A stretch of 64,000 bases of DNA, from positions 54,960 through 118,959 of the forward strand of contig CACGDO010000002.1 of assembly GCA_902571865.1 (NCBI GenBank). Direction: 5' to 3'. Both the position numbers and the translations under genes were made by a program. Positions within the stretch are counted from its first letter, which is position 1, and the number at the start of each line of letters is the position of its first letter. This DNA is from an uncultured Alphaproteobacteria bacterium. GTDB lineage: Bacteria; Pseudomonadota; Alphaproteobacteria; HIMB59; GCA-002718135. Of the stretch, positions 45,671 through 48,924 are shown in pieces. The notes beneath the pieces are model-generated. The model was not told where the DNA came from. It was given only the letters and a program-made list of their open reading frames with translations, and did not search any database.

Positions 45671-46609
45671 ATGTCAGAATATAAATATTCAATTGAAGCT
45701 AAAAATGTAAATAAAGTTTTTTATAAAAAAACTCAAAAAGTTAATGCATTAATTGATTTTAGTATAAAGCTAGAAAGAGGAACAATTCATGGTCTATTAG
45801 GACCAAATGGTGCAGGCAAATCAACCTTTATTAATATTCTTGGAGGTTTAGTCAAAAAAAATTCAGGAGATGTTAATATTTGTGGCATAAATATAGATAA
45901 AAACATTAAATTAAGTAAATTCAAAATAGGTATAGTTCCGCAAGAATTAAATATTGATCCATTCTTTTCTCCAGCTGAATTATTAGAGCTGCAAGCAGGT
46001 TTATATGGGGTTCCTAAAAGAAAAAGAAAAACTGATGAAATTCTTGATAATTTAAAATTGACAGATCAAAGAAATGCTTACGCTAGAACCTTGTCTGGTG
46101 GGATGAGACGAAGATTACTAATTGGAAAGGCTCTTGTTCATGATCCAGAAATGATAATTTTAGATGAGCCAACTGCAGGTGTTGACATTGATATTAGAAC
46201 ATCTGTTTGGAATTATATAAAAAAAATAAGCAAACAAGGAAAGACGATATGTTTAACAACTCATTATTTAGAGGAAGCTGAAAGTCTTTGTGACAAAATT
46301 ACTATTATTAATAATGGTAAAAAAGTTATCGAAGGATCTAAGACTGATTTACTAAATATTATATCAACTAAGTCAGTTTCTTTTGTCTTAGATGAAAGCG
46401 TAAGCATTCCTAAAGAGTTAAATGAATTTAAACCAGTAATTACGGATAACATATTAAAACTAAATTATGATAAAAATAAAACTAATATAAAAAAAATTAT
46501 TAATATTTTGAATAGTAATGGAATTGAATTTAAAGAAATTAATACATCTGAAGGTGATTTAGAAGACGTCTTTATTAAAGTAGTTAGTAAAAATGATACT
46601 GCAGTCTAA
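45671..46609 (+). CDS. ABC transporter ATP-binding protein (ABC-2/NatA-DrrA-like), no adjacent permease
   Basis: 312 aa. Walker A GLLGPNGAGKST, signature LSGGMRRRL, Walker B IILDEP, and a C-terminal extension of about 80 aa. Confidence 0.9.
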   Translation: MSEYKYSIEAKNVNKVFYKKTQKVNALIDFSIKLERGTIHGLLGPNGAGKSTFINILGGLVKKNSGDVNICGINIDKNIKLSKFKIGIVPQELNIDPFFSPAELLELQAGLYGVPKRKRKTDEILDNLKLTDQRNAYARTLSGGMRRRLLIGKALVHDPEMIILDEPTAGVDIDIRTSVWNYIKKISKQGKTICLTTHYLEEAESLCDKITIINNGKKVIEGSKTDLLNIISTKSVSFVLDESVSIPKELNEFKPVITDNILKLNYDKNKTNIKKIINILNSNGIEFKEINTSEGDLEDVFIKVVSKNDTAV

Positions 46610-47915
46610 AAATTTATTTAGTTACCTTTTTTTACTGATCCCTTTGTTTTTAATTACTGGTCCAGCGATACCTGATATTGTAATTACATTAGGTGTAATA
46701 TTTGGAATATTTTATATTCTTTATCAAAAAGAATATGAAAACTTTATAAAGTTAAATTTTTTTAGAATTTCAATTATATTTTGGTTAAGTTTAATATTAA
46801 TAAGTTTTTTTTCATATAATAAAACTTATTCTTTCCAAGATTCTCTAATTTTTATTAGAATTTTATTAATACCATTTTTTTGTTATTTTGTATTTTTTAG
46901 AGATAATAAATTTTTTGAGAGATTATTATTGGTTTTATTTATTATTGTTGTGTTTGTTAGTATAGATACACTTTATCAATTCATTAATTATACATCTAAA
47001 GATGGTTTTAAAGAAGATTTATTAGGATTTAAGTCAAACTGGTATGGAAGATTAACTGGTCCATTTGGAGATGAATTAATTCCTGGATCATACCTATCAA
47101 AGTTTGGTTTATTTGGATTTGTATTTCTTATATCTAAAAAAAAATTAGAAAATAATATAATTTTTCAATCACTTTATCTATCTATAATTATTTTAGTTTG
47201 CTATGTATCTGGTGAAAGAATGGCATTTGCAACATTCTCTTTAAGCTTACTGCTTTTACTTATTTTTTTAGACGGTTTTAGGAAATCTATTATGTCATCA
47301 ATTTTGATTGGTGCATTATTTATATTTTTAGCAAATTATCTACATCCCTTTTATAATGACTTTAATATAATTGAGTCTACTGAATATCATCAAGGTCAGA
47401 AAATTGAAAAATTTTTTCAATGTGAAAACAATACTGAAAAAATCTGTTCAAAAATTATAAATATTCAGCCCAATTTTTTCGAGGTAATTAAAAATTTTAG
47501 CAGTTCTGCTTATGGTGAAATTTATTTATTGTCGTTTAAAATGTTTATAGATAACCCAATTACAGGAATTGGTATTAATAATTTTAAATATCTATGTAAC
47601 TACAATGAATTATATAAAAATATGATGATAAATTATGAGTGTGCATCACATCCACACAACATTTATATACAATGGTTAGCAGAGGGTGGTTTAATAGTGT
47701 TTATTTCATTTATTTTATTCTTATTTTTCTTGGTAAAGTTTATAATAAATAATACTGCTGATAAAAAATATAAAATAATTTCTATTGTGATAATTTTAAT
47801 AATGTTTTGGCCTATTATGTCGACTGGGAGTTTAATTAAAAATTGGTTTGGAGTGACTACATTTTTTATTATTGGATTATGTATGTGTCTTAGTAAATTT
47901 AAAAATAATTACTAA
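46593..47915 (+). CDS. O-antigen ligase / Wzy_C-domain membrane protein
   Basis: 440 aa, about 10-12 TM helices, with a periplasmic loop carrying ASHPHNIYIQWLAEGG (the H-x-H-N type motif of WaaL/PglL-like ligases). Overlaps the ABC ATPase gene by 17 nt. Confidence 0.72.
   Translation: MILQSKNLFSYLFLLIPLFLITGPAIPDIVITLGVIFGIFYILYQKEYENFIKLNFFRISIIFWLSLILISFFSYNKTYSFQDSLIFIRILLIPFFCYFVFFRDNKFFERLLLVLFIIVVFVSIDTLYQFINYTSKDGFKEDLLGFKSNWYGRLTGPFGDELIPGSYLSKFGLFGFVFLISKKKLENNIIFQSLYLSIIILVCYVSGERMAFATFSLSLLLLLIFLDGFRKSIMSSILIGALFIFLANYLHPFYNDFNIIESTEYHQGQKIEKFFQCENNTEKICSKIINIQPNFFEVIKNFSSSAYGEIYLLSFKMFIDNPITGIGINNFKYLCNYNELYKNMMINYECASHPHNIYIQWLAEGGLIVFISFILFLFFLVKFIINNTADKKYKIISIVIILIMFWPIMSTGSLIKNWFGVTTFFIIGLCMCLSKFKNNY
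47197..47306. repeat. left arm of a perfect 110-bp inverted repeat
   Basis: Checked block by block: the reverse complement of 47197-47306 equals 48027-48136 (110/110). Weaker similarity continues to 47321. Confidence 0.95.
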
Positions 47916-48143
47916 GCTTTGAATTTGAAAAAGTTTTTTTAGATTTTAGAGCAACTAATAATCCTAATATAAAGAAAATTATCACAGCTAGTGTTGTTCC
48001 ATTACCTTTACCAAATAATGAACCAACAAAATTGATGACATAATAGATTTCCTAAAACCGTCTAAAAAAATAAGTAAAAGCAGTAAGCTTAAAGAGAATG
48101 TTGCAAATGCCATTCTTTCACCAGATACATAGCAAATATGATC
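47899..48143 (-). pseudogene. frameshifted, internally deleted inverted copy of the O-antigen-ligase-like gene
   Basis: The minus strand reads ...CYVSGERMAFATFSLSLLLLLIFLDGFRKSIMSSIL (ligase residues 203-238). A missing A then shifts the frame. The restored frame gives IGSLFGKGNGTTLAVIIFFILGLLVALKSKKTFSNSKLSNYF*, which resembles the ligase C-terminus. Confidence 0.5.
48027..48136. repeat. right arm of a perfect 110-bp inverted repeat
   Basis: Exact reverse complement of 47197-47306. It extends to 48013 with one substitution and one 1-nt deletion. It overlaps the last 6 codons and the stop of the GT2 gene. Confidence 0.95.
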
Positions 48144-48924
48144 CTACGAATGCCATATAAACTGCAGAATATGCTATTGATAAATTTGTTGAAGCAGAAT
48201 TATCAAAAAATCTTACTTTGATAAGATAATAAAAAGATTTTAGACCATCAACCCATGTAATTTTTTTTCCTTGTACTTTGGATCTAAAAAAATATGAGAC
48301 ACCAAATTCATAAATAAAAAAGTTATTTCTTACAATTTGTGAAGCTAGATCGATTTCAATACCAAAATCATTTATACTAAGTTGAATTTTTTCTATTACA
48401 CTTCTATGTAAAATTTTTAATCCACAATGAACATCACTTAATGATTGTGAAAAAAAAATGTTGAATATTAAGGAATTTATTTTTCCTACAAGGTTATTAA
48501 AAAAATAATTATTTTTCTTTAATTTGCCTGATAAGTATCTGCTGCCAAAAATACATTTTATCTCTTTATTAGTAGAAATCATTTCAAACATTTCTTTAGC
48601 ATCTTTACAATCTAATTCTAAATCTGCATCTTGAAGCAAAACATATTCTCCATTTGAATTTTTAATACCTATCTGAATTGCTTTTCCTTTTCCTGAATTG
48701 ATATCAAGTCTTATAATTTTAAGTGAGAATTTGTAGTTATATTTTTTTTTTAATTCTGCTAATAAGTCGGATGAACCGTCGTTTGAACCATCATCAACAA
48801 TAATAACTTCAGTATATTCATTATTAAAAAATTTTTTAATTTGTTCGAAGAGTTTTCTAAGAAAGTTAATTTCATTAAAAACAGGTATTACTATGGATAA
48901 CGTTTTACTATTCTCTTGGGGCAT
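48118..48924 (-). CDS. glycosyltransferase family 2
   Basis: 268 aa. SIVIPVFNE, DDGSNDGS and LQDADLE (DxD) motifs with a hydrophobic C-terminal tail. The start overlaps the regA stop region by 17 nt. Confidence 0.85.
   Translation of the reverse strand: MPQENSKTLSIVIPVFNEINFLRKLFEQIKKFFNNEYTEVIIVDDGSNDGSSDLLAELKKKYNYKFSLKIIRLDINSGKGKAIQIGIKNSNGEYVLLQDADLELDCKDAKEMFEMISTNKEIKCIFGSRYLSGKLKKNNYFFNNLVGKINSLIFNIFFSQSLSDVHCGLKILHRSVIEKIQLSINDFGIEIDLASQIVRNNFFIYEFGVSYFFRSKVQGKKITWVDGLKSFYYLIKVRFFDNSASTNLSIAYSAVYMAFVGSYLLCIW

Follow-up and report, generated by a model that had tools for sequence, protein, structure and literature searches.

A perfect 110-bp inverted repeat at a surface-glycan locus carries the signature of a double template switch, probably made by phi29 polymerase during genome amplification

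Two arms of 110 nt (47197-47306 and 48027-48136), 100% complementary to each other (110/110) and 720 nt apart, enclose the 3' half of an O-antigen-ligase-like gene in a 64-kb stretch of DNA (the window, that is, the whole sequence analysed). The locus raises the question of whether such a repeat is a functional element or the trace of a copying accident and, if the latter, whether the accident took place in a cell or in vitro. When the repeat was recomputed, the arms were identical in coordinates to those of the original prediction, which was also borne out in placing the left arm at ligase codons 202-238 and the HPHN motif (residue 353) in the interval, in reporting ~15 nt more of similarity beyond the inner arm ends (with one substitution and one 1-nt indel), and in finding nothing else in the window duplicated at such a scale. 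The next-longest inverted pair was 58 nt at 71%, the 110-nt pair being the sole long repeat, and the chance expectation for perfect 110-nt inverted repeats at 28% GC was ~2e-49.

The repeat arms and the truncated GT2 gene

The ligase-like gene (Wzy_C; 46593-47915, + strand) was intact and encoded 440 aa, with a match to PF04932 over residues 195-374 (E = 3.7e-19). The left arm (47197-47306, + strand) was native coding sequence of this gene, in frame inside the Pfam Wzy_C match, and is regarded as the donor or template of the copy. On the opposite strand and convergent with the ligase-like gene, a truncated GT2 glycosyltransferase ORF was located at 48118-48924 (- strand, 268 aa; PF00535, E = 1.2e-27), and the right arm (48027-48136, - strand) was recognised as a reverse-complement copy of the left arm inside GT2 by alignment with the intact GT2 of the closest related locus and by breakpoint mapping. 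This locus, L001, is the contig of the best GT2 homologue (P0001), comes from a single-cell genome (GCA_902567605.1) and aligns to window positions 37897-58924; its ligase-like protein has the same length as that of the window.

Approximately 0.8% of positions differed between the window and L001 over ~46.6-52 kb, and the patch at the right arm was the one large difference, L001 having the native 108 nt at the site and an intact GT2. In a four-way alignment, the ligase copy of the arm was native in both the window and L001, and the GT2 copy was present in the window alone. The left-arm sequence occupied the same place in the L001 ligase gene (109/110) and was recognisably conserved in 10 further relatives. 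The right arm was identical to the window's own ligase gene at 110/110 positions, to that of L001 at 109/110, and to those of the ten other relatives at no more than 83%; the template was therefore in the same molecule or genome and not in foreign DNA.

The reading frame of GT2 runs across the arm through 36 arm-encoded codons with two in-frame stops and is then open as VGSLFGKGNGTTLAVIIFFILGLLVALKSKKTFSNSKLSNYF, followed by a stop. This orphaned 3' remnant (47899-48027, - strand) is in frame with the 5' part and identical to the C-terminus of P0001. The right arm had originally been described as running into the end of the GT2 gene; it does overlap the last codons of the ORF, but the arm itself creates the stop, because the GT2 frame stays open past the arm to the native stop at 47899-47901, and the last 5 residues and stop of the truncated ORF are patch-encoded. 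P0001 was 100% identical to the window GT2 over the shared part, carried a 38-residue membrane segment (FGMGLGNTLFIIIFFIIGLILGIHFKILSSSIIFFLIF) at the position of the arm, and then continued with exactly the orphaned C-terminus of the window. The product was 268 aa in the window against 343 aa when intact, and a length of exactly 343 aa was found in 113 of the 120 best GT2 homologues. The replaced segment, part of a hydrophobic C-terminal domain, was conserved at 84% mean identity over 112 full-length homologues. Judged from these alignments, the right arm is a patch overwriting 108 nt of the convergent GT2 gene, with the predicted effect of breaking GT2.

The full-length GT2 family was most like polyprenyl-phosphate glycosyltransferases (AglJ, PpgS, ArnC, PgfS), with all matches far below the curated cut-offs. 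The best NCBIfam match of the ligase-like protein was the O-oligosaccharyltransferase TfpM, and neither GT2 nor the ligase reached any curated NCBIfam cut-off. The 343-aa GT2, with its hydrophobic C-terminal membrane domain, and the 440-aa Wzy_C protein were kept as a pair beside regB/regA-gyrB-recF-dnaN-dnaA in all Pelagibacter-like relatives fetched (L001-L011). This pair is an uncharacterised core glycan module.

For the patched allele, a second carrier was sought in related genomes and in metagenome records, as had been proposed with the original prediction. The inverted repeat between the two genes was absent in 11/11 related loci, all with an intact 343-aa GT2, and the 268-aa GT2 product was on record on one contig only. 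Degenerate patterns of the chimeric junctions, one per junction, matched the window once, with no match in any fetched locus or in 241 million metagenome records. Each half of the proximal pattern matched 5/11 distinct relatives, and the scan could therefore detect the allele well beyond the window's own lineage; the distal pattern is narrow in reach, its ligase half matching the closest lineage alone. Neither a second independent observation nor inheritance of the allele was found among the 11 loci, the 120 best homologues and the 241 M metagenome records, the distal-junction part of the scan being narrow. In these records the patch is a singleton, apparently belonging to one assembly only.

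Switch, stem, gene conversion and transposon readings

The arrangement could be read as a functional element, either a programmed invertible switch by which the ligase-like gene is shut off or a long dsRNA stem at which the convergent transcripts are terminated or processed. With a perfect repeat of 110 bp, homologous inversion is feasible, and a read-through transcript would fold completely along it; after inversion the ligase would be cut short at 250 aa, ending in the 12-codon out-of-frame tail that had been foreseen (LVHYLVKVMEQH). The layout, moreover, is that of invertons of the fim/hin type, where two inverted repeats enclose DNA within or adjoining genes for surface structures. Invertons, however, are characterised by a recombinase, by conservation and by short recombinase sites, whereas here the arms are 110 bp of coding sequence, one gene is destroyed and both orientations are defective: GT2 is 268 aa in either, and the ligase is intact only as seen, with 250 aa predicted for the inverted state. 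Families of recombinases, integrases or invertases were absent from the genes called at 37.9-58.9 kb of the window (precomputed Pfam assignments of the syntenic L001, ~10 kb either side). Conservation is likewise missing, since the relatives without the repeat include one that is ~99% identical locally. The right arm is not an addition; it overwrites and inactivates a conserved gene that neither orientation restores, and the microhomologies at its junctions point to a copying accident. A functional element of either kind is extremely unlikely, and the ON/OFF inversion switch of the original prediction was not supported, given the absence of the repeat from the 11 loci and the metagenomes, the absence of a recombinase at 37.9-58.9 kb and the broken products both ways. 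Of the dsRNA stem, the 110/110 pairing stands by construction; the stem is nonetheless a side effect of a copy event seen once, and is not conserved as a structure. The repeat does not bracket anything by design.

Three successive gene overlaps of 17 nt were noted along this part of the window, between the ABC ATPase and ligase genes (46593-46609), between the native convergent 3' ends of GT2 and the ligase gene (47899-47915), and between regA and GT2 (48908-48924). As the native convergent ends overlap by 17 nt, there is no intergenic space or terminator between them.

Ectopic gene conversion also produces a non-reciprocal, perfectly identical short tract within 1 kb, as was found here. It needs homology, whereas the donor and recipient at this locus share junction microhomologies only; the two being non-homologous, RecA-type conversion had no substrate before the event. 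A conversion with a decaying paralogue, as had been suggested, thus holds as far as a very recent non-reciprocal copy is concerned; the paralogue does not, the recipient being an unrelated and otherwise intact GT2, and conversion between paralogues was rejected. A transposon or MITE with terminal inverted repeats was rejected as well: in L001 both the left arm and the 720 nt between the arms occur as native, syntenic DNA, and the right arm alone is new and replaces sequence rather than being inserted into it.

Breakpoints and a proposed double template switch

Within the right arm, 102 nt (48032-48133) were unambiguously derived from the ligase gene and replaced 108 native GT2 nt (38 codons of the membrane domain). 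The net change of -6 nt keeps the frame, which has a 1-in-3 chance and is uninformative. At the proximal junction (48134-48136; the return switch in the mechanism proposed below), the GT2-sense strand of the window equals native GT2 as far as ...GGATCATATTT and then the ligase gene from TTTGCTATG..., the two sharing 3 nt. This overlap (TTT, GT2-sense), common to native GT2 and the ligase gene, lies in a longer imperfect match, TTTG[G/C]TATG (8/9), with a duplex energy of -8.8 kcal/mol. At the distal junction (48027-48031; the initiating switch), ligase-derived ...CATCAATTTTG shares 5 nt with native TTTTGTTGGTTCATTATTT, reading TTTTG on the GT2-sense strand and CAAAA on the + strand. The 14 native GT2 nt beyond the distal overlap (48013-48026) were already 13/14 complementary to ligase positions 47308-47321; sequence comparison gave 47307-47321 as the ligase-side partner of this pre-existing imperfect inverted match. 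Together with the 5-nt overlap, a 19/21 primer-template match with one bulge is obtained (-15.0 kcal/mol; both energies were computed with DNA parameters). The native junction sequences, from the GT2 site without the patch, are GGATCATATTTTGGTATGGG and TTTTTTAATTTTTGTTGGTTC; the chimeric junction sequences are CATATTTGCTATGTATC and CAATTTTGTTGGTTC, as against the native CATATTTTGGTATGGG and TTAATTTTTGTTGGTTC.

The 19/21 inverted match was present also in L001, which has no repeat. Inverted microhomologies of this kind (14 nt with no more than 1 mismatch, arms 200-1500 nt apart) occurred approximately once per 550 nt in the 28% GC window. Potential template-switch sites are therefore everywhere and the patch site is an ordinary one, and a special hotspot at the site was rejected.

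With L001 as a proxy for the ancestor, the site has a three-fragment pattern consisting of ancestral flank, a reverse-complement fragment from nearby and ancestral flank again. As read from these sequences, the repeat has the signature of a scar left by a single double template-switch event of a DNA polymerase. In the mechanism proposed, a nascent + strand, made from left to right through the 3' end of GT2, would leave its template at ...GAACCAACAAAA-3'. The freed 3' end would anneal at the pre-existing 19/21 site to the + strand of the ligase sequence 720 nt behind, whether in the same strand or in a sister copy that had been displaced, and ~105 nt would be copied leftwards, from ~47302 to ~47197. 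The strand would then rejoin the original template at the TTT/AAA microhomology, six bases out of register. The predicted outcome is the replacement of 108 nt of GT2 by 102 nt of reverse-complemented ligase sequence, by which GT2 gains two in-frame stops and a perfect inverted repeat of 110 bp arises. This direction and order of the two switches are favoured because the 19/21 complementarity would then already have been synthesised at the moment of the switch. The GC skew showed no clear origin, and hence no fork direction could be assigned at the locus; its sign changed near 19 kb, 32 kb, 38 kb and 57 kb, apparently tracking gene orientation in the 28% GC sequence, and an origin relative to dnaA (~55.4-56.7 kb) was not readable.

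A template-switch scar is not novel as a kind of event, and this patch is a clean worked example for recognising such patches.

Timing of the switch and surroundings of the locus

The patch is probably an artefact of phi29 whole-genome amplification, made by template switching, and probably never existed in a living cell. The proteins of the window map to a single NCBI contig of 226,192 bp on which proteins bear neither accessions nor names. The closest relatives, AG-xxx single-cell assemblies (L001 from GCA_902567605.1; L002-L011 named AG-xxx NODE_n), share this signature and are similar in contig size, from which we infer that the window contig also comes from a single-cell amplified genome and that the switch took place in vitro. 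Chimeras made in MDA are 85% inverted, arise mostly from <10 kb away and intramolecularly, and start from a primer match of 2-21 complementary nt (PMC1855051); their overlaps are typically 5-8 nt, with hotspots at 12-13 nt (PMC9984789). The right arm agrees with this description in being an exact reverse complement of a ligase segment, in having its source 720-830 nt away in the window's own allele, and in its overlaps of 3 nt and 5 nt, extended to 8/9 and 19/21. An MDA chimera is also unique to one amplified sample, phi29 amplification being presumed for the window. Single-cell genomes of the AG-xxx kind are produced with WGA-X, a variant of phi29 MDA with a read-level chimera rate equal to that of standard MDA, and are assembled with SPAdes --sc (PMC5519541). 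For benchmark cultures taken through the workflow of the producing laboratory, ~1.5 misassemblies per 100 kb were reported (PMC11247762), and roughly one is therefore expected per 64-kb window.

The likeness is incomplete in one respect. A typical MDA chimera has a single junction and an intervening deletion, whereas the patch has two junctions, flanks collinear with L001 and a net change of -6 nt. A patch with two junctions, in which synthesis goes back to its first template, counts against an amplification artefact and has the classic look of an in-vivo template-switch mutation. Under in-vitro switching, the polymerase would have to be displaced twice, and the branched products of MDA make this plausible. 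A chimera formed early would outgrow the native copy at the locus; in the assembly graph the two versions would appear as a simple bubble, of which the assembler would keep the more amplified branch with the higher coverage.

The main alternative, though less likely, is that the same double template switch happened in vivo, as a quasipalindrome-type mutation that arose at a replication fork among the ancestors of one cell and left a very recent GT2 loss-of-function allele. Two-junction patches of this kind are the normal outcome in vivo and are described by the four-point template-switch model (PMC7954356), with quasipalindrome mutagenesis as the matching mechanism (PMC7202029; for the same class, see also PMC8794818). 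In this class a near-perfect inverted repeat becomes perfect and extended, the new sequence is the reverse complement of nearby sequence, flanks are unchanged and microhomology is found at the switch points, all of which holds for the patch. A pre-existing imperfect inverted repeat, also typical of the class, was present as the 19/21 match shared with L001, though such sites occur about once per 550 nt. The 110/110 identity of the arms and the undecayed GT2 remnant fit a very recent event, and surface-glycan genes would be plausible targets of phage-driven loss.

Against an in-vivo origin, no second sighting was obtained in the loci, homologues or metagenome records searched, and a heritable or population allele is unsupported. 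The destroyed GT2 is strongly conserved in length and sequence, so that carriers should be rare and short-lived. Among in-vivo template-switch mutations, a fragment of 102-110 nt with its source 720 nt distant lies toward the upper end of the size range, both fragment and distance being large for the quasipalindrome class. If the contig was single-cell amplified, moreover, the base rate of amplification and assembly errors of ~1.5 per 100 kb lies far above the frequency at which new complex mutations could plausibly be met in 64 kb. It is less likely that the patch records a genuine 720-nt template switch in one wild Pelagibacter cell, with a GT2 knockout in a genome almost free of pseudogenes and a new 110-bp substrate for inversion. 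If it did, the repeat could invert the 3' half of the ligase-like gene by RecA-mediated homologous recombination, and the locus would show directly the way in which streamlined marine bacteria come by inverted repeats and surface-glycan knockouts. Such an event would be a textbook-clean long template-switch mutation in a wild cell, of modest interest for studies of mutation mechanisms and not a new biological system.

An artefact of assembly had been listed among the explanations in the original prediction. An artefact is indeed favoured, as a template switch in amplification; a pure assembler error is not. Purely computational misassembly is very improbable; here the assembler would have joined two independent chimeric reads of one junction each, or mis-resolved a repeat, via shared ligase k-mers while the native 108 nt had no coverage. 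Coverage does drop out severely in single-cell data, and inverted chimeras with one junction are frequent there, but this error would need two independent chimeras 105 nt apart from the same donor segment and, in addition, the dropout of exactly the intervening native sequence. The overlaps of 3 and 5 nt are also far below any assembly k-mer; as a de Bruijn assembler cannot bridge them, each junction must have existed in real molecules, which must have carried both junctions and dominated the reads.

On the favoured reading, phi29 template switching in vitro, the locus calls for caution. What mimics a phase-variation switch, with perfect inverted arms on either side of half a surface-glycan gene, is shown by a near-identical genome to be a one-off copying scar, and users of this public assembly would annotate GT2 as a pseudogene and list a repeat, neither of which the cell itself probably ever had.

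Upstream of the ligase-like gene, a separate step in divergence from L001 was observed. The two sequences differ by ~0.8% at 46.5-52 kb and onward and by ~10-15% at 44.0-46.5 kb, a region that takes in polA together with the larger part of the ABC ATPase gene; the step falls within the 3' end of the latter. On sequence comparison, it has the appearance of a boundary left by homologous recombination, the two genomes being very close otherwise.
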